From NCBI GenBank assembly GCA_035549255.1, contig DASZRD010000007.1, positions 65,104 through 129,103 of the forward strand: 64,000 nt of DNA, written 5' to 3'. A program made the translations under genes and the position numbers. Under the pieces are notes generated by a model. That model had not been told where the DNA came from. It searched no databases and saw only the letters and a program-made list of their open reading frames with translations. Of the stretch, positions 3,232 to 63,960 are shown one piece after another (the stretch's first letter is position 1; every line of letters starts with the position of its first letter). Origin of the DNA: Minisyncoccota bacterium. GTDB lineage: Bacteria > Patescibacteriota > Minisyncoccia > Phycocordibacterales > SBAW01.

Positions 3232-4086
3232 TTACATGCGCATGCCGGGCATCGAGCTCATGTCTGTCCCCGGCACGCTCGGGGGCGACATGAATTGCAT
3301 AAGTATTTTATCGTACAGATCGTCGGCCACGCTTGCGTAGGAAAACGGTGCATCGATAGTACCAGGCTGCGCCAGAGATTGATAAGTCGGATAATTGAGC
3401 GCCATGACTCCTTCCTTGGTTTGGGCCACCCACGAGTCGAAGTCGCCCTGCGGCACGGCCGTGGCCTTGAAGCCCATCGAAGCGAAGCCGTCGCCGCTAT
3501 AGTTGGACGAATAGCCGCTATAGGTGCCCGGCGAGGACGCCATAAGGTTAAGCGTCGTTACCATGCCGCTCATGGCATAGATCTGCCCGCCCAATTGCGG
3601 GATCCAAAACGAGTTCATCGGCGCGTCGGCGGTGACCTTGAAGGTGATTGGGGTACCGACCGGGATCGTAAGGCCGCCCACTGTGGCAATCCCCTGCTCA
3701 GGGTAGATAAAGAGCCACTTCCACGGCAGCGCTACCACCTCGATCGTCATGCCCGGCGTATCGGAGGCGATGGGGTTGGGCGGGTTGAGCTCGTGAGTGC
3801 TCGTCCACGTGAGCGCCGCAAGCACCAGCACGATCTCGAGCGGTATCGCCCACCAGACAAGCTCGTCCATCTTGGAGTGCTCCCACTCGGGCATGTACTT
3901 CGCAGACGTGTTGCTCGCGCGGTATTTCCACGCAAAGAAAAAGATAAGGATGTAGACCGGCACCGCCACAATGAGCATAAGCTCAATCGTGTGGAGCATC
4001 AGCCCGCGCTCCGCTGTCCCGATAGGGCCCTGAGGATTGAGCATTACGAAAGTACCGGGCCAGTTCATGCTTTCATCATACCGCAT
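3232..4086 (-). CDS. cyoA: cytochrome o ubiquinol oxidase subunit II
   Basis: 284 aa with N-terminal TM helices plus a periplasmic cupredoxin-like domain lacking the CuA ligands, as in quinol oxidases. First gene of the operon. Confidence 0.88.
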
Positions 4087-9870: not shown

Positions 9871-12558
9871 TTATTTACCTTTGAGTACCTTGCGCAAATA
9901 GTTGCCGGTGTGCGAGGTCTTATGATTCGCTACGTCTTCAGGAGTCCCCTTCGCCACGAGCTTGCCGCCGCCTTCGCCGCCTTCGGGACCGAAGTCGAGC
10001 AGCCAGTCGGAGGTCTTTATCACGTCCATATTGTGCTCAATGAGCACAACCGAGTTTCCCGCCGCGACAAGGCGGTTGAGGATTTCAATTAGTTTGCGCA
10101 CGTCTTCATAGTGGAGCCCGACCGTCGGCTCATCGAGAAGATAAATCGTTTTCTGGAGATGCGGCTTATAGAGCTCCGCGCTGATCTTCACACGCTGTGC
10201 CTCGCCGCCCGAGAGCGTCGTCGCCGATTGGCCGAGTTTGAGGTAGCCGAGACCGACTTCGCCGAGCGTGCGCAGGCGGTCGTAGATCGCCGGAATGTCG
10301 TTGAAGAAGTCGAGCGCCTCCTCGACCGACATCTCGAGCACATCGTAGATGCTCTTCTTTTTGTATTTCACTTCGAGCGTCTCCTTCATAAACCGCTTGC
10401 CGTTGCAGACATCGCAGGTCACGTAGACGGTTGGTAAGAAGGCCATCTCGACGGCGATGACGCCGTTGCCCTCGCACGCCTCGCAGCGCCCGCCGCCGCG
10501 CGATTGCGGCACGTTGAAGGAGAAGCGGCTCGACTTCCAGCCGCGTGCCCGCGCCTCGATTGTCTCCGCGAAGAGGTCGCGGATAAAGGTGAAGGCGCCG
10601 GTGTAGGTCGCCGGGTTAGAACGCGGCGTCCGGCCGATCGGCGATTGGTCGATCAATATCGCACGGGAAAGATTCTCGAGCCCCTCGACGCTCGCGGCAT
10701 TGAAGACCCGGTTGGTGCGATAGCGCTTGTCGAAGCGCGCGCGCAGATTTTCGTAGAGGATTTCGTACAGGAAGGTCGACTTCCCCGAGCCCGAGACGCC
10801 GGTGATCGTGACGAGCCGCCCGAGCGGGATATCGACCGAGAGGTTCTCGATATTGAAGGCCTTGCCGCCCTTGATCTTGATCCAACCTTTGTCCTTGCTG
10901 CGCCTTTCGTCCGGCACTTCGATCGCCTTTTCGCCGCGCAGGTATGCGAGCGTGACGCTGCCGCTATCGTTCTTCTTTGCGGTGAGAAGCTTATCAAGCT
11001 CGCCTGCGACGACCACGTGCCCGCCGTGCACGCCCGCGCCCGGGCCGATATCGACGATATAATCACCGGAGTAAATCGTGTCTTCATCGTGCTCGACGAC
11101 GAGGATGGTATTGCCCAAGTCGCGCAGATTAACCAACGTCTTGATAAGGCGCTCATTGTCGCGCTGGTGGAGGCCGATCGTCGGCTCATCGAGCACATAG
11201 AGCGCACCCACGAGGCCGGAGCCAAGCTGCGACGCAAGCCGGATGCGCTGCGCTTCGCCGCCGGAGAGCGTATTGGCACGACGCTCGAGCGTAAGATAGT
11301 CGAGGCCGACGTCGAGCATGAATTTGAGCCGCGCGCAGATCTCCTTGATGACGGTCTTCGAGATCTCCTGATCTTTTTTAGAGAGATGGAGCGCGTTGAA
11401 ATACTCGTACGCGTCGGCGATCGAGAGCGAAGTGATCTCGACGATATTGTAGCGGCCTTCCTTGCGGCGCACGCTGGCCTCAGGTATGGGCTCGTTGGGG
11501 TCTCCGCCTCGGCTCGACGCCGAAGTCGAGACGGGCTTCACCTCCTTCTCAAGGAATACGTTGAGTGCTTCGGGGCGGAGCCTCGCGCCGTGGCACACCG
11601 GGCAGGGCTCCTCGCCCATGAAGTGCTTGGTGCCGAGGCCGTTGCACTCGGGGCACGCGCCGTACGGTGAGTTGAAGGAGAAGAGGCGCGGCTCAACCTC
11701 GGGGAATGAGAACCCGTCGTACGGGCACATGAACTTGGCCGAGATGAGCCGCTCGCCATGAGCGTCTTCAATTTTGACCAAGCCATCCGATGCCTCAAGC
11801 GCGCGCTCGACTGCTTCAGAAAGGCGCTCGAGCGCCGCCGCGGCGCGAGCCTGATTTTTTTGCGCAGGCGCAAAGTCTGTCACTAATATTTCATCGACCA
11901 GTGCGTCGATATCGTGCTTCTTGTATTTAGAAAGAATGACTTGTTCGCGCAGGTTCTTAACCTCGCCGTCGATCTTGGCACGCTCATAGCCCTTGCCGAG
12001 GAGATCATAGAGCAATTGATAGTACTCGCCCTTGCGGCCGACCACGAGCGGCGCATAAATCTTGACCGTATCTTCAGCGATCTCGACGCCCATGACCTTT
12101 TGCGTCTTCTTCGGCGGATGCGAGCCCACATTCTCGACGATGCTACTGATGATCTCTTCGTTGGAGAGCTTCTTGATCTCGCGGCCGCAGATGAGGCAGT
12201 GCGGCTTCCCCACGCGCGCGAAGAGGATGCGCATGTAGTCGTAGATTTCGGTAATGGTTGCCACCGTCGAGCGCGGATTATTGGAGCGCGACTTCTGATC
12301 GATCGAGATCGCGGGGCTCAAGCCCGTGATCTCCTCGACATCCGGCTTCTGCATCTGGCGGAGGAACTGTCGCGCGTAGGCGGAGAGCGATTCTACGTAG
12401 CGCCGCTGGCCCTCGGCGAAGATAGTGTCGAACGCCAAAGACGACTTCCCGCTCCCGGAAAGCCCCGTAAACAAGACCATCTTATTGCGCGGAATGCTCA
12501 ATGAGATGTTCTTGAGATTGTGGGTCTTGGCCCCTTTTATATGAATATAGTCTTCCAT
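9871..12558 (-). CDS. uvrA: excinuclease ABC subunit A
   Basis: Two ABC ATPase modules with zinc-finger insertions. The track ORF runs to 12747, but UvrA homology begins at [20 protein letters not shown], so the start was set at the internal ATG. Confidence 0.92.
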
Positions 12559-12599
12559 GGCAACGCTATAGCCCCACGGATCGCTCCGAGGGGTACCTA

Positions 12600-12640
12600 T
12601 ACACAAGTTTAGTATACCACAGAGGGCACATTCTATAAAA
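12600..12640 (-). promoter_or_regulatory. putative uvrA promoter
   Basis: On the minus strand: TTATAG, 16 nt, then an extended -10 TGGTATACT about 45 nt upstream of the uvrA ATG. Confidence 0.3.
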
Positions 12641-13194
12641 TAAAAGGCCCCCGCAACGTTGCAACGTCGCGAAGGGCCTTGTTCGACCTTACAGATCAGC
12701 ATGATGACGGAGTGTTCCGTCGTTGGACGGTCCTCCCGTCTCAGCATGACCTTTGGAAAGATCGCTGCTCAAAGCGTTGCGCTTCGAGCGTCGTCCACCT
12801 TCACCCTTTCGAGCTATCGTCTGCATCCATCGCTGGACACAAATGACTTTTCAAAAAAATAGAAGCTGTCCGACAGAACAAGATGTGGATTGCGGATGCC
12901 TCCGCTATCCGGATTGGCATTGCGCACTGCCATACCTATCTCATTCCGACCGTATTTGGGGTCATCTTGGATCCTTTTTGATCTCCCTTGCGGGACATCT
13001 GAAGAAAACAAGTCCAAATGGCCTATCGGCTCTCAGTAGAGCATCTCGCATTTCTGCGAAGTGCCCCGTGATGTGGCGTTCGGTATTACTACCTGTGCCG
13101 CGCCGGTAATGTAGGAGTTTACTCTTCCCGTAATGGAGAGCAAGTGAATAACGTATTTGGAAATACTTTTAAAATCTCGCAATATCTCTGGCCA

Positions 13195-15243: not shown

Positions 15244-15278
15244 GTTATGGACATTCTACCATTTTTGTTATGAAAAAG

Positions 15279-15312
15279 AAAAAGGGCCGCTCGCGCGAGG
15301 CGGCGGCCCAAG
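15279..15312 (-). terminator. terminator downstream of tgt
   Basis: Minus-strand GGGCCGCCGCCTCGCGCGAGCGGCCC followed by TTTTTCTTTTTC. Confidence 0.45.
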
Positions 15313-15387
15313 GCTAGGGAGGAAACGCCCAAGGGGGGCATGCGGCGTCATTGCCGCTTCTTCACTATATGTGCACTTCACGAAAGA

Positions 15388-23678: not shown

Positions 23679-23712
23679 CATATTTGTCAACAACCAACCC
23701 GTCTGCTATTCT
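23679..23712 (+). promoter_or_regulatory. sigma70-like promoter upstream of the tRNA-Gln fragment and GIY-YIG gene
   Basis: TTGTCA, 17 nt, TATTCT, ending about 8 nt before the tRNA 5' end. Confidence 0.4.
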
Positions 23713-23720
23713 CAACGTAT

Positions 23721-23782
23721 TGCCCGATCGCCCGTCTCGACTCGGCGTCGAGCCGAGGCGGATCTAATGGTAGGACAGCGGC
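23721..23782 (+). pseudogene. truncated 5' copy of tRNA-Gln (acceptor and D arm) interrupted by a 32-nt hairpin insert
   Basis: TGCCCGATCG[CCCGTCTCGACTCGGCGTCGAGCCGAGGCGGA]TCTAATGGTAGGACAGCGGC is the same as nt 1-30 of the intact tRNA-Gln downstream, except for the bracketed insert. Confidence 0.6.
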
Positions 23783-23785
23783 TAT

Positions 23786-24028
23786 ATGTTTTGGATCTAC
23801 GTTCTAAAATCCGAAAAATTCGATATCTCTTACGTGGGGTCCGCTGAAAATATAGAGCGTCGTCTTATCCAGCATAATAATGGAGTATCGAAGTTCACAA
23901 AGAAATATAGACCGTGGAAAGTAATCTATTCTGAGTCTTATACTACTCGTTCTGATGCTCTACAAAGAGAAAAATTCCTCAAATCAAAGAGTGGCAGAAA
24001 ATTTCTTAAAAGTGTAGTCTTTAAGTGA
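23786..24028 (+). CDS. GIY-YIG nuclease family protein (UPF0213 / YhbQ-YazA-like, COG2827)
   Basis: 80 aa (MFWIYVLKSEKFDISYVGSAENIERRLIQHNNG...KYRPWKVIY...REKFLKS). GC is about 35% against roughly 60% around it. Confidence 0.8.
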   Translation: MFWIYVLKSEKFDISYVGSAENIERRLIQHNNGVSKFTKKYRPWKVIYSESYTTRSDALQREKFLKSKSGRKFLKSVVFK

Positions 24029-24029
24029 T

Positions 24030-24104
24030 TGCCCGATCGTCTAATGGTAGGACAGCGGCCTTTGAAGCCGTTAATTGGGGTTCGAATCCCTGTCGGGCAG
24101 CCAG
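24030..24104 (+). tRNA. tRNA-Gln (anticodon TTG), CCA encoded
   Basis: U1:A72, anticodon loop CTTTGAA, T arm TGGGG-TTCGAAT-CCCTG, discriminator G and a terminal CCA. Confidence 0.85.
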
Positions 24105-24124: not shown

Positions 24125-26500
24125 TTGAGTCGGGTTCATAACCGACCTGAAATATTTCTGCCGCGGGTGTATGGTCAGAGTATGGAGTTCCCGGGCCTTA
24201 CGACCGCCGCTGCAGAAGCGTACCAGCGCGAGCACGGCTATAACGAAATAGTAGAAAAGCAGGAGTCGCTGGCGCATAAGATCATGCGCCGGAGCGTCTC
24301 TCCTGTCTCCGCGATGCTGCTCTTTGCCGCAGCCCTATCATTTATAAGCGGAAAAATCTTCGACGGGTGCTTCATTCTTTTCCTCCTTGCACTCAACGTA
24401 GGTGTTACGGTTTGGCAGGAGCATAAGGCGGATACGGCGATCGAGAAGCTCAACGAACACCTCGCGACCGCTGTGCGTGTGCTGCGCGACGGGGCATTGC
24501 AGACGCTCTCTGCCCGGCTCCTCGTTCCGGGAGACGTGGTCGAACTGCGCGCGGGCGATATCGTGCCCGCTGATGCCCGTGCAGAATCGGTGAACGGCGC
24601 GAGCGCGAACGAAGCCGCTCTTACCGGCGAATCCCTTCCGAAAGAAAAGAATGCCGGCGATACGCTTTATTCGGGGTCCTTTCTCGCAGCGGGGCTTGCC
24701 ACGGTCCGCATCACGAAGACAGGAAGCACGACGTATTTCGGCAGGACGATCGCCGCCGTGGATACGACTCCGCGCAAGAGTGCGCTCGAGAAGGACATCC
24801 TGCGCATCTCGAAATTCCTGTCGCTGCTCGCCGTAGGCGCAGTGTTGCTCCTCACTGCCGTATCCCTTTACCACCGCGTCGCCTGGACGGATATGCTGCG
24901 GCTCGATCTTTCATTGGCTATCGCAGGTGTGCCTATCAGTCTTCCCGCTGTGATGACACTCATCATCGCGCTCGGTGTAGTGGGGCTCTCGAAGAAAGGC
25001 GCGGTCGTCCGGCGGCTCTCCGCGCTCGAGGAGCTCGCCAATGCGGACCTCCTCCTCACGGACAAAACGGGGACGCTCACCAAGAACCATATCAAGGTGA
25101 ACGAGGTGCGGACATACGGGTCCTGGGATGAGGCAGGCGCACGGCGCATGGCCGCGCTTGTGGCCGCCGCCGATCCCTCGAATGCGATAAACCGGGCGCT
25201 CGCAGGCGCGGGGGCGCAGCCAGAAATCGTGCGCTATGTGCCCGCAGATTCGGAACGCAAGCGCAGCACGCTCGCATATCGGGAAAACGGCCGCGTGCAG
25301 ACGGTTTCTCTCGGCGCTCCTCAGGCGATTATGGCACTGTGCCGCATGCCAGACGACGCACAGAGGCGGTTCTATGACGACGTGGACGCGCTCGCGAAGG
25401 GCGGCTACCGCGCACTTGCGCTCGCCGTCGCGGACGGGGAACAAGAAAGGGATATGGATCTCGCGGGGCTCTTTGCCCTCTCTGACGAGCTGCGCGAGGA
25501 CGCGAGCGACGTCGTGCGTTTCCTCGATGAAAACGGCATCGAAGTGGTGATGGTCACGGGGGACAATCGCGCAATTGCACGGGAGATTGCCGGCAAGCTC
25601 GGCGTTACGGGCGGCGCCATCGTGGCCCGCGATGCGCTTCTTGCCCGTGGCGTAGATTCGCTCACTGCCGCGTCCTTCCGCGATACGCGCGCGTTCGCCG
25701 AAATACTTCCTGAAGACAAATACGCGCTCGTCGCGCAAGCGAAGCGATTCTTCACGGTAGCGACGAACGGAGACGGGGTGAATGATCTGCCGGCGCTGAA
25801 GGCCGCGAACGTGAGCTTTGCGGTGAAGGATGCGGTGGATGCTCTCAAGGGCGCGGCGGATATCGTGCTTGTCTCGAGTGGCATTGCCGTTATGAAGGAT
25901 GCATTCATCGAGGGGCGCCGCATCTTCGCGCGCCTCTACACGTATTCCTTATACCGAATTTCGGAGAGCTTTCGTCTCATCGTCACTATCATCGTGCTCG
26001 GGGTGGCGACGGGCACCTACCCCCTTTCCCCGCTTCAGCTCATTCTTATCGCGCTTTTGAACGATATACCTATCATCTCGCTTGCTACCGACCGCGTGAA
26101 GGCGGCGCATCGCCCGTCAAAGATAGATGTGAGAAAACAGTTCTCGCAGAGCTTGCGGTACGGCGCGATCGGCGTTCTCAACAGCTTGATCTTGTTCTTC
26201 TTTGCAACCGGCTATCTGCACCTCCCGCTTCCCGTTGTCGAGACTCTTTTCTTCCTGAAGCTCACCATCTCCGGCCATCTGCTCATCTATGTCGCACATA
26301 CCAAGGAGCGTTGGTGGCGATACCTGCCGAGCCGAGCAGTTATCGTCGCCACGAGCCTTACCCAGGCCGCAGCGACCGGGCTCGCCATTACGGGCTTTCT
26401 TATGCCGGCCGCCATATCATGGAAGCTCGCTCTTTTCGCATGGATATGGTCGTTCTTCTTCATGCAGATCGGAGAAGCGGTAAAGGCGCGTTCGTCATGA
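24125..26500 (+). CDS. P-type ATPase, plasma-membrane H+/Mg2+-type (P3-like)
   Basis: Contains DKTGTLT, TGDN and GDGVNDLPALKAANV motifs. The true start is probably the internal MEFPG near 24183, because the track start is a TTG that abuts tRNA-Gln. Confidence 0.9.
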   Translation: MSRVHNRPEIFLPRVYGQSMEFPGLTTAAAEAYQREHGYNEIVEKQESLAHKIMRRSVSPVSAMLLFAAALSFISGKIFDGCFILFLLALNVGVTVWQEHKADTAIEKLNEHLATAVRVLRDGALQTLSARLLVPGDVVELRAGDIVPADARAESVNGASANEAALTGESLPKEKNAGDTLYSGSFLAAGLATVRITKTGSTTYFGRTIAAVDTTPRKSALEKDILRISKFLSLLAVGAVLLLTAVSLYHRVAWTDMLRLDLSLAIAGVPISLPAVMTLIIALGVVGLSKKGAVVRRLSALEELANADLLLTDKTGTLTKNHIKVNEVRTYGSWDEAGARRMAALVAAADPSNAINRALAGAGAQPEIVRYVPADSERKRSTLAYRENGRVQTVSLGAPQAIMALCRMPDDAQRRFYDDVDALAKGGYRALALAVADGEQERDMDLAGLFALSDELREDASDVVRFLDENGIEVVMVTGDNRAIAREIAGKLGVTGGAIVARDALLARGVDSLTAASFRDTRAFAEILPEDKYALVAQAKRFFTVATNGDGVNDLPALKAANVSFAVKDAVDALKGAADIVLVSSGIAVMKDAFIEGRRIFARLYTYSLYRISESFRLIVTIIVLGVATGTYPLSPLQLILIALLNDIPIISLATDRVKAAHRPSKIDVRKQFSQSLRYGAIGVLNSLILFFFATGYLHLPLPVVETLFFLKLTISGHLLIYVAHTKERWWRYLPSRAVIVATSLTQAAATGLAITGFLMPAAISWKLALFAWIWSFFFMQIGEAVKARSS

Positions 26501-63320: not shown

Positions 63321-63521
63321 CTACTCGAATTTCAATTTCCGCCCGGCGGCCTTCTCAATCATCGCCTTGACATCAGGCGTGATCTCGACCAGGGGTTCCA
63401 GCTTATTTTTCTTGATCCCTCTACGGAAGGCTTCTCTCCGCCATCTTCTGATGTCTTCTGGAGTAACTTTGACCGACCAGGGCGCCTGGCCAAATCGCGC
63501 CTTCCCAAATGGATAACTCAT
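63321..63521 (-). CDS. hypothetical small protein (66 aa)
   Basis: ORF only. Confidence 0.3.
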   Translation of the reverse strand: MSYPFGKARFGQAPWSVKVTPEDIRRWRREAFRRGIKKNKLEPLVEITPDVKAMIEKAAGRKLKFE

Positions 63522-63594
63522 AGGGCTACCTCCTTTCTGTCTATCTAAAGTCTATATCTTCTTAAACTTAATGCCAATAAAGCACCCGCGGTTA

Positions 63595-63960
63595 TTATTT
63601 ATCGTCGAAATCTTTTGCGACTAAGAGATGTATATGAAAGTGTCCTGGAATAGATTTCTGCTTCTCGGTTGCTTCAATCATAAACTGATATGACCCTTGG
63701 ATATCATCGCTGTGTTTGATTGCAAGAAGTTCACTTTTTTCTTCCTCGGTAAGGCCAAGTTCATTGGTATGCCGTAGAGGCAGGAGCATCTCGTGCCTTT
63801 GAGCAATACGGTCGAACGGAAATTTATTATCTGTTATTTTCCAATACGTATACTTTTTGAGCGGTTCAGCCTCGCAGAGCGGGCAACCATGATCGAGCCC
63901 GCCCTGCTCGCGGTAATCCTTATACTTCTGCGTCATCTTGCGCGTGCGTAAGCTACCCAT
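63595..63960 (-). CDS. HIT (histidine triad)-like protein with an N-terminal CxxC
   Basis: C-terminal HFHIHLL (HxHxHxx triad) and an N-terminal CPLCE. Confidence 0.5.
   Translation of the reverse strand: MGSLRTRKMTQKYKDYREQGGLDHGCPLCEAEPLKKYTYWKITDNKFPFDRIAQRHEMLLPLRHTNELGLTEEEKSELLAIKHSDDIQGSYQFMIEATEKQKSIPGHFHIHLLVAKDFDDK

Follow-up and report, generated by a model that had tools for sequence, protein, structure and literature searches.

A 64,000-nucleotide stretch of DNA from a Minisyncoccota bacterium (contig DASZRD010000007.1, positions 65,104 to 129,103; hereafter the window) carries a gene of about 250 nucleotides for a bare GIY-YIG nuclease domain, lodged between two copies of a glutamine transfer RNA (tRNA-Gln) gene, one intact and one dead. 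The dead copy is truncated on the side facing the nuclease gene and interrupted by a GC-rich palindromic hairpin of a kind conserved among relatives. The same anatomy recurs at many tRNA genes of distant bacteria, where it is sporadically occupied and coupled both to such hairpins and to the type of the adjoining tRNA, with a protein that bears the mark of selection. We describe this cassette below, and weigh the reading that it belongs to a family of mobile or selfish elements living in tRNA genes.

Organisation of the tRNA-Gln locus

The locus, read on the forward strand, opens with a sigma-70-like promoter match at 23684-23712 (TTGTCA-17-TATTCT, with a TG before the -10 hexamer), a match to the consensus only, at 9 of 12 positions, whose end is separated from the tRNA-Gln fragment by 8 nucleotides. 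It is presumed to be the native tRNA-Gln promoter, which would now drive the fragment, the open reading frame (ORF) and the tRNA. A divergent promoter-like match on the minus strand (23690-23662, 11 of 12 positions) faces a gene for a 65-amino-acid zinc-ribbon protein and has one hexamer in common with the cassette promoter.

The dead tRNA-Gln copy follows in two pieces. The first (23719-23730, ATTGCCCGATCG) comprises the 2 nucleotides preceding the tRNA and its nucleotides 1-10, and matches 24028-24039 exactly over 12 nucleotides, the tRNA part being repeated at 23721-23730 with 100% identity. The second (23763-23782) comprises nucleotides 11-30, identical at 20 of 20 positions to 24040-24059, and stops at C30, where the 5' strand of the anticodon stem ends. 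Between nucleotides 10 and 11 lies a GC-rich hairpin insert of 32 nucleotides (23731-23762, CCCGTCTCGACTCGGCGTCGAGCCGAGGCGGA), which, folded as DNA, forms an 8-bp outer stem with one G-T pair and a 4-bp inner stem (-10.9 kcal/mol, z = -2.4); a CTCGGC/GCCGAG stem is an alternative pairing inside the same insert. Rfam gave no match in either this tRNA fragment or the hairpin. The second piece also holds an AGGA Shine-Dalgarno-like motif (GGTAGGAC) located 10 nucleotides upstream of the ATG of the nuclease gene.

This gene (23786-24028) encodes a stand-alone GIY-YIG nuclease of 80 amino acids (Pfam PF01541), made of the catalytic domain only. Its GC content is 35.4%, against 57.9% for the whole window, and reaches 35% at third codon positions, against 71% in the neighbouring ATPase gene. 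A single nucleotide separates its stop codon, ending at 24028, from an intact tRNA-Gln(UUG) with an encoded CCA (24030-24103), detected by ARAGORN and by Rfam (61.7 bits). Further 3', a terminator-like hairpin with a T-rich tail (24130-24160), a pattern match only, likely marks the end of the fragment-ORF-tRNA transcription unit. The P-type ATPase encoded downstream is shorter in its database version (P0012, 772 amino acids) than the ORF listed from 24125, and the ATPase start should therefore lie 3' of this terminator-like hairpin. None of the other 11 tRNAs of the window has a nearby partial copy, which argues that the dead tRNA-Gln copy is not a chance repeat. The fragment-ORF-tRNA transcript folds mildly more stably than shuffled sequences (z = -2.2), and its duplicated acceptor strand can pair with the 3' end of the tRNA.

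These data agree with most of what a sequence-only reading had described at this locus, namely the presence of tRNA-Gln nucleotides 1-30 in two copies, the cut of the upstream copy at the end of the anticodon-stem 5' strand, the low-GC nuclease ORF, the intact tRNA beginning right after its stop, and the promoter hexamers ahead of the fragment. The hairpin after nucleotide 10, described there as perfect, kept its length and position but not its perfection, and the proposal to look for self-processing in the folded transcript led to no case for it at this z-score.

A bare GIY-YIG domain under selection

The 80-amino-acid protein matches the Pfam GIY-YIG domain over residues 1-71 with 64.6 bits (cut-off 22.6, E = 1.1e-17), and residues Y5, Y16, G18, R26, H30 and E62 are invariant in an alignment of 11 sequences. 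Its AlphaFold2 model (predicted local distance difference test, pLDDT, of 94) places strands at residues 2-9, 15-20 and 44-52 and helices at 23-31, 55-66 and 68-77, revealing a plain GIY-YIG domain with no residues outside the catalytic domain. The Pfam span and the model leave no separate DNA-binding domain in the protein, and the C-terminal zinc-finger domain of SLX1 is missing as well, the whole chain being GIY-YIG.

Foldseek retrieved GIY-YIG domains only, including SLX1 (7CQ3) with a template modelling (TM) score of 0.71 and a root mean square deviation of 1.3 Å. In a profile search of solved structures, the UPF0213 proteins BH0048 (1ZG2, E = 2.7e-11) and EF2693 (1YWL, E = 4.6e-11) came first, with SLX1 at 3.4e-06 and I-TevI marginal at 0.008, and UvrC found by fold only (profile E > 1). 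Among GIY-YIG branches, the protein is thus nearest to UPF0213 proteins and SLX1. A weak match to TIGR01453, the group I intron endonuclease family, was also obtained (19 bits against a cut-off of 56, E = 0.0011). Searches of NCBIfam, PADLOC and PHROGs gave no meaningful match, the best PADLOC hit reaching E = 6e-4 over 35 residues, on which ground an identity as a defence system was rejected, and PHROGs giving none at all. A phage origin was rejected in the same way, with 2 weak matches among 2.9 million viral contigs and none in PHROGs. The sequence-only reading had proposed to look for phage or Candidate Phyla Radiation (CPR) relatives of the protein: CPR ones were found, including its closest relative at locus L001, and viral contigs gave the 2 weak matches only.

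Between the window gene and the L001 gene, the ratio of non-synonymous to synonymous substitutions (dN/dS) is 0.12, indicating that the protein is kept by purifying selection, and synonymous divergence (dS) is about 1.7, so that the tRNA-Gln lineage is old, not young. Both genes have 35-37% GC in hosts of 55-58% GC; family-wide, the ORF usually lies a few GC points below its flanks.

Recurrence at tRNA genes across bacterial phyla

Relatives of the protein were collected from contigs representing one genome per species, where at least 552 were found, and the best 80, picked by protein similarity and not by context, were analysed. A tRNA on the same strand lies within 150 nucleotides of the ORF in 67 of the 80, against a background of 2.2% of flanking positions, and on the opposite strand in none (0/80). 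This tRNA is 3' of the ORF in 40 loci, most often starting between 37 nucleotides before and 15 nucleotides after the stop codon, which is thus often inside the tRNA; it is 5' of the ORF in 21 loci, sometimes by just 1-5 nucleotides, and tRNAs occur on both sides in 6. The 13 remaining loci comprise two with an upstream transfer-messenger RNA (tmRNA), three with a tRNA-Asn that carries a group I intron and was missed by ARAGORN, one overlapping a degenerate tRNA, three inner units of tandem arrays located by a tRNA, two with a tRNA 180-280 nucleotides off, and two inside a tyrosine recombinase gene of Verrucomicrobia.

A partial copy of the adjoining tRNA is nearly always present on the far side of the ORF and, wherever it aligns cleanly, is about 98-100% identical to the intact one. 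In downstream-tRNA loci, this copy is the 5' part of the tRNA, beginning at nucleotide 1 in about three quarters of cases (roughly 30/40) and ending anywhere from the D-loop to the T-arm; in upstream-tRNA loci, it is the 3' part. The tRNAs concerned are of more than 12 types, including Gln, Leu, Ser, Asn, Arg, Lys, His, Met, Val, Pro, Cys, Ile and Phe, and the hosts belong to CPR lineages, Bacteroidota, Ignavibacteria, Nitrospirota and Omnitrophota, among others. A profile run against 1.84 billion cluster representatives retrieved 6,955 clusters at E <= 1e-10, among which many of the longer matches look like gene calls reading through hairpins, or fused tandem copies.

For instance, on a 1.1-Mb contig (L015), tRNA-Phe nucleotides 1-20, a 16-nucleotide palindrome (CCTGCCTGCCGGCAGG), tRNA-Phe nucleotides 21-32 and the ORF succeed one another, the stop codon falling inside the intact tRNA-Phe. 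Locus L004 holds three tandem units and a partial fourth, ending in an intact tRNA-Arg, each unit consisting of the region upstream of tRNA-Arg, a 5' fragment with an insert flanked by inverted repeats, and the ORF. The closest relative, L001, shares 72% amino acid identity with the window protein and lies at a tRNA-Gln of a 55% GC host, with the hairpin of the window at the same position. An assembly artefact was rejected, the layout being found in independent assemblies, including the single 1.1-Mb contig of L015.

Several loci depart from this layout. One subclade has its GIY-YIG gene 3' of a tmRNA gene (L053, 1684-2081; L082, 1988-2375). In the two Verrucomicrobia loci (L049 and L051, ORFs at 264-536 and 1195-1479), the ORF sits in the tyrosine recombinase gene, with CACGT-type hairpins flanking it and recombinase motifs on both sides. 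In a related CPR subclade (L030, L041, L059, L060 and L075), the ORF lies between tRNA-Arg and tRNA-His with CCACGT..ACGTGG hairpins on its flanks, and a dead tRNA copy is missing.

In three CPR genomes, the anticodon loop of tRNA-Asn(GUU) is interrupted by a group I intron (L069, 1385-1690; L077, 2850-3150; L085, downstream of 2737), called by Rfam in the first two (82 and 41 bits, respectively) and by eye in the third. The cassette lies just upstream of these tRNAs, with a dead 5' copy that ends exactly at the intron insertion site, a coincidence hinting that the intron of the intact tRNA-Asn may confer immunity.

Palindromic hairpins

The palindromes interrupting the dead copies recur at unrelated hosts and tRNAs, often in tandem pairs. 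Recurring forms include TCCGCC-N3-GGCGGA, TCAGCC-N3-GGCTGA, TGCGCC-N3-GGCGCA and a 20-nucleotide perfect palindrome (CCTGCCTGCCGGCAGGCAGG). Across the 80 loci, the first of them occurs 40 times within -350 to +450 nucleotides of the ORFs and twice elsewhere (0.50 against 0.007 per kb), CCTGCC..GGCAGG was counted 29 times near the ORFs and never far from them, and 52 loci contain at least one canonical hairpin. Among GCC-N3-GGC cores, the outer three pairs are perfect in 76 of 100 near ORFs against 4 of 53 elsewhere. At least 10 outer stem types and 22 loops occur, so that pairing or dyad symmetry is what is conserved. Inserts are mostly clean, with lengths of 15, 19-20 or 30 nucleotides, and are mainly located in or beside the D-loop, anticodon loop and T-loop of the dead copy, this assignment to regions being approximate.

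The 32-nucleotide insert of the window is a longer variant with the outer stem CCGTCTCG/CGAGGCGG, common to a tRNA-Gln group of Saccharibacteria and Paceibacterota (L001, L022, L029, L033, L038 and the protein P0003). The insert is the same in L001 and takes related forms in L022, L029, L033 and L038, and P0003 reads through it (RLDSASSRGG). Furthermore, locus L142, where a different GIY-YIG lineage sits at the same tRNA-Gln, bears CCTGCCTGCGCAGGCAGG at the same place, after G10.

A second copy of the window hairpin, 33 nucleotides long with one extra T, was identified by sequence match on the minus strand at 11503-11535, in frame in a uvrA-like ORF (9871-12747, minus strand) and within a segment of about 25-30 amino acids that is absent from solved UvrA proteins, suggesting that the hairpin can occur away from a cassette. 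The window UvrA also apparently lacks the region matching residues ~304-415 of 2R6F. In addition, a solo TCCGCCAGAGGCGGA hairpin at 4949-4963 of L031 forms the last codons (SARGG) of an ORF for a MATE-type transporter, 2.4 kb from the cassette and far from tRNAs. For comparison with small palindromic repeats of the REP or MITE type, which have many dispersed copies per genome, the 64-kb window holds two hairpin copies, and canonical hairpins are almost confined to cassettes in the 80 related loci.

In our preferred account, the hairpins are integral cis elements of the cassette system. As best guesses for their role, they may interrupt the target of the nuclease or the homology of the dead copy, or they may be substrates of an SLX1-like structure-specific nuclease; the first of these is suggested by the three tRNA-Asn loci, where an intron interrupts the intact tRNA at the point where the dead copy ends. 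A 'poison pill' role, in which hairpins would turn every deletion product into a dead tRNA, was rejected as a general explanation, several loci keeping 28-37 nucleotides of uninterrupted 5' homology or 100-130 nucleotides of duplicated flank.

Occupancy, amplification and probable exchange between copies

An exact search of metagenome contigs for tRNA-Gln nucleotides 1-24 yielded 60 loci with enough upstream sequence. Fifty-nine have no upstream GIY-YIG gene, L142 being the only one occupied. The tRNA-Gln of L168 is identical to that of the window (74/74) and has no upstream cassette, and those of L119, L124 and L170, which differ from it by 2 nucleotides, are also empty. The empty tRNA-Gln site that the sequence-only reading had proposed to look for was thus found at loci with the same tRNA 5' sequence, but not with the same flanking genes. 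An exact search for the promoter joined to an uninterrupted tRNA-Gln gave no match, and the neighbourhoods of P0013, P0014 and P0022, relatives of the downstream P-type ATPase, are unrelated to that of the window. In three related Paceibacterota loci (L223-L225), the zinc-ribbon/DUF6496 side is kept, and a DEAD-box helicase gene lies directly upstream of the zinc-ribbon gene in the place of the cassette, with no tRNA-Gln.

Some tRNA-Gln loci contain 5' fragments alone. L143 has an ORF-less fragment with three hairpins ahead of the intact tRNA-Gln, and about 10 loci (e.g. L104, L107, L116 and L121) have ORF-less 5' copies 110-160 nucleotides upstream of it. These fragments look like decay products of the cassette. 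L104 also contains an inverted copy of tRNA nucleotides 6-18.

Conversely, tandem arrays were found in at least 9 loci, the three ORF copies of L004 differing by 4-6 of 264 nucleotides. Seven short contigs from seven independent assemblies (L008-L014) consist of a 489-nucleotide unit, made of the ORF, a hairpin-bearing 3' fragment of tRNA-Met and a flank, with ends that overlap by exactly k (141, 127 or 55), which indicates either a tandem array or a free circle.

A neighbour-joining tree groups the proteins by the amino-acid type of the adjoining tRNA and not by host, one Leu group bringing together Ignavibacteria, Bacteroidota and CPR, and the tRNA-before and tRNA-after layouts both occur within single protein clades. 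Of 68 proteins, 34 have their nearest relative from another broad taxon at a tRNA for the same amino acid, against 10.8 +/- 3.5 expected, a value of 34 being reached by none of 1000 permutations. Furthermore, dead and intact copies of one locus carry the same lineage-specific substitutions, such as GCCCGA with C27 in the window against GGGGTA with A27 in L001, or ACTGG in L043 against ATTAG in L061, where both tRNA copies are concerned and hairpin type and position are common to the two loci. These common substitutions suggest that the copies keep exchanging sequence or are re-created locally, the hairpin staying in one of them.

In L001, the 5' acceptor strand of the tRNA-Gln (3262-3335), UGGGGUA in both copies, cannot pair with the 3' strand UCGGGCA, and the Rfam model aligns at positions 7-64 only. 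This gene is either a chimeric tRNA produced by co-conversion or the product of a chimeric assembly, L002 and L003 confirming its 5' part only.

The window locus had first been read as a recent insertion or duplication at a tRNA locus, or as a cassette using the tRNA promoter. An inserted, mobile-type cassette is indeed what the empty loci, the diversity of tRNA types and the tandem arrays point to, but 'recent' does not fit the synonymous divergence from L001. The layout does occur in distant organisms, where it is sporadic and at different tRNAs, which speaks for a cassette and not for an old fixed arrangement.

A probable selfish cassette and its alternatives

Taken together, we give a probability of about 0.85 to the reading that these loci form a family of mobile or selfish cassettes linked to tRNA genes. 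The fuller account, in which miniature selfish cassettes inhabit tRNA genes and are propagated by DNA repair, we hold to be somewhat better than an even bet. In this account, the intact downstream tRNA-Gln would keep the host supplied, and the dead 5' fragment would retain the native tRNA promoter and serve as 5' untranslated region and ribosome-binding site, as the geometry of the locus suggests. By the same geometry, the nuclease ORF would be co-transcribed with the tRNA, the latter being released by RNase P processing, which would compete with translation wherever the stop codon is inside the tRNA. The nuclease would then break or nick tRNA-gene DNA, and recombinational repair from a cassette-bearing copy could install or re-duplicate the cassette, the conserved tRNA sequence itself providing the homology; a broken end pairing out of register with the dead copy would give an extra tandem unit. 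With the tRNA as homology, protein lineages would be expected to stay with one tRNA type across phyla. Repair would also account for the pair of intact and partial tRNAs, for duplications of variable length, and for both the tandem arrays and the exchange between copies.

Several points weigh against this reading. Its dynamics are inferred from static sequences, and the search among close relatives of the window organism gave no empty site between the same neighbouring genes, synteny breaking at the cassette. The catalytic domain of 80 amino acids, modelled without a DNA-binding domain, has no obvious means of finding tRNA genes, and in most loci the intact tRNA adjoining the gene would stay cleavable. 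The tRNA-Gln hairpin lineage, with a dS of about 1.7, is possibly one of long residence and little movement. In addition, the duplicated tRNA piece ranges from 10 to more than 80 nucleotides, sometimes with 100-130 nucleotides of flank, as no single simple mechanism predicts, and the test for selection at the RNA level on the sense strand gave 20 G-T against 31 A-C mismatches in the hairpins, a noisy count.

The alternative that survives best keeps the mobility and replaces the mechanism: a unit made of the ORF and a hairpin-bearing tRNA fragment would integrate and excise by recombination at the tRNA sequence, as a circle or by cut and paste, with hairpins acting as nuclease recognition sites, functionally like integron attC, and solo hairpins as minimal self-inserting derivatives. 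A single crossover between a circle bearing tRNA nucleotides 1 to x and the chromosomal tRNA would give exactly the dead(1..x)-ORF-intact layout, and a circle bearing the 3' part would give intact-ORF-dead(y..end), both layouts being found in one protein clade. Such an integration therefore leads to the same products as the repair model, and we keep it as the main rival. The cleanness of the hairpin insertions, the solo copies in uvrA (11503-11535) and at the end of the L031 MATE gene, and the closeness of the protein to the SLX1 type go in the same direction. SLX1 cuts branched and stem-loop DNA. However, the 489-nucleotide cycle in seven assemblies, which would fit a circle, is equally explained by chromosomal tandem arrays of the kind directly visible in L006 and L004, joining DNA is beyond a GIY-YIG hydrolase, which would still need host ligation or recombination, and a hairpin at nucleotides 10-21 leaves a very short stretch for a viable crossover. 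We consider this alternative unlikely.

Descent from an intron-encoded homing endonuclease is suggested by the tRNA-Asn clade, in which the group I intron site marks the end of the dead copy and three loci retain an intron in the intact tRNA, by the window fragment ending beside the anticodon loop, and by the weak TIGR01453 match (E = 0.0011, far under the cut-off). The GIY-YIG gene would once have resided in a group I intron of the anticodon loop, and loss of the ribozyme would have left the copy of the 5' exon behind. No Intron_gpI match was obtained in the window between 23000 and 24600 at E <= 1, however, using the same search that detects the introns of L069 and L077. Moreover, the downstream tRNA is complete with the ORF outside it, the boundary of the dead copy ranges from D-loop to T-arm across the family, and the protein is nearer to UPF0213/SLX1 than to I-TevI (E = 2.7e-11 vs 0.008). 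This degenerate-intron origin therefore appears very improbable to us.

We give about as little credit to an ordinary host gene, in which a small nuclease of the UPF0213 type would serve DNA repair or the maintenance of tRNA genes and simply be encoded in tRNA operons. Purifying selection, the very large size of the family (6,955 clusters at E <= 1e-10), the near absence from viral contigs and the status of the Bacillus and Enterococcus UPF0213 proteins as ordinary chromosomal genes would all suit a host function. By contrast, such a function sits poorly with presence at just one of the 60 tRNA-Gln loci that share the same 5' sequence, association with more than 12 tRNA types, a dead tRNA copy nearly always alongside with its hairpins, tandem amplification, a GC content far from that of the host, and protein lineages that cross phyla together with the tRNA type.

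Finally, a leftover of an integrase-mediated island in a tRNA gene, with the nuclease as surviving cargo, is scarcely credible: although a complete and a partial tRNA at the insert ends are a known signature of integrated elements (PMC9897764) and tmRNA is also a target in this family, there is no integrase, the insert of only ~250-300 nucleotides holds one 80-amino-acid ORF, the window repeats the 5' part of the tRNA and not the 3' part, which other family members do repeat, and random island decay would not produce ORFs packed against the tRNA in 67/80 loci.

A selfish, tRNA-linked cassette thus remains our preferred reading. The cassette is best read as a homing-type selfish nuclease gene, and might be of an altogether new category should the hairpins be its recognition sites. 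In its boldest form, which we advance tentatively and consider doubtful, the family would make up a novel class among the mobile elements of bacteria. Its bare, structure-specific GIY-YIG nuclease would recognise the hairpin-forming DNA of tRNA genes and mobilise both itself and 15-30-nucleotide palindromes into tRNA loops, with the near-universal tRNA sequence as a cross-phylum landing pad and the hairpins as cis sites for recognition, immunity or protection against deletion.

If the selfish reading is correct, these would be among the smallest self-perpetuating gene cassettes of bacteria, with ~250 nucleotides of foreign DNA and borrowed tRNA sequence, and would illustrate how phyla can be crossed by using the most conserved genes as homology. 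They would also give a biological context to part of the UPF0213-like stand-alone GIY-YIG family and account for a class of fragmentary tRNA genes and for odd 'tRNA' calls in genome annotation. The family counts thousands of protein clusters at 50% identity across CPR/Patescibacteria, Bacteroidota, Ignavibacteria, Nitrospirota and Omnitrophota, and its palindromes of 15-20 nucleotides and 80-amino-acid enzyme make an unusually tractable system in vitro.

Other features of the window

Away from the cassette, the minus strand at 15270-15346 gives a gathering-level Rfam match (57.5 bits) to suhB/mmgR (RF00519), a small RNA family of alpha-proteobacteria that is unexpected in Paceibacterota. A second low-GC patch (~39-43%) extends over 63400-63700, beside small ORFs of 66 amino acids (63321-63521) and 121 amino acids (63595-63960).

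Relation to known systems

No description of the cassette or of its hairpin sequences was found in the full-text literature, a coverage outside which most subscription journals fall. The most familiar free-standing GIY-YIG homing endonuclease genes are those of the Seg family of T-even phages, among which SegB lies in the tRNA gene cluster of T4. Seg proteins have ~200-250 amino acids with a DNA-binding domain, and probably spread through the repair of breaks, during which flanking DNA is co-converted. The cassette resembles them, and SegB in particular, in being a non-intronic and sporadic GIY-YIG gene by or between tRNA genes. It differs in being a catalytic domain of 80 amino acids only, chromosomal and nearly absent from viral contigs, with a protein nearer to UPF0213/SLX1 than to I-TevI; to our knowledge, Seg genes are accompanied neither by partial tRNA duplication nor by hairpin inserts.

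The UPF0213 proteins share the single-domain size of the cassette protein and are, together with SLX1, its closest matches in sequence and fold. Those with solved structures have no reported link to tRNA genes, and the match hints only at a possible preference for structured DNA. SLX1, which works with a partner, SLX4, has a zinc-finger second domain that the cassette protein lacks.

Fungal mitochondria offer another parallel, with mobile GIY-YIG ORFs that bring a partial duplication of the host gene (Allomyces atp6) and mobile GC-rich double hairpins that can land in coding regions (yeast GC clusters). As in the cassette, a duplicated gene piece restores the host gene and short GC-rich palindromes stand at the junctions, whereas the fungal elements are organellar and their ORF is fused in frame to a protein gene. 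We know of no sequence relation between the two kinds of hairpins. In the collaborative homing of cyanophage psbA, reportedly described by Zeng, Bonocora and Shub in 2009, a free-standing endonuclease gene lies beside a gene whose intron interrupts the target. L069, L077 and L085 recall this situation, with a nuclease gene directly upstream of an intron-bearing tRNA-Asn, whereas most family members, including that of the window, have no intron in the intact tRNA.

Integrase-borne islands and prophages in tRNA and tmRNA genes are said to have been treated by Williams in 2002. Such elements are flanked by one intact and one partial tRNA copy (PMC9897764), and the cassette shares with them both this flanking and the use of tRNA and tmRNA genes as targets. 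Unlike them, it has no integrase, measures ~0.3 kb against 9-100 kb, duplicates either end of the tRNA and leaves a partial copy riddled with hairpins.

Closer in terms of hosts, GIY-YIG genes occur in CPR rRNA genes, within insertions that do not qualify as introns of group I or group II and are located at the top or the base of stem-loops (Tsurumaki et al. 2024, PMC11270868). Both systems thus place a GIY-YIG gene in structured-RNA genes of the same bacterial group; in that case, however, the rRNA tolerates the insertion and no gene duplication is described, whereas here tRNA function is saved by partial duplication. Furthermore, GIY-YIG proteins are among the genes predicted to have moved from Patescibacteria to other bacteria (PMC12455944), a prediction that fits the distribution of the cassette. 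With no DNA-binding domain, integrase or ribozyme, and not being phage-borne, the cassette lacks defining features of each of the closest known concepts. Its own features are the palindromes in the loops of a dead tRNA, the duplication of either tRNA end and a spread across phyla.

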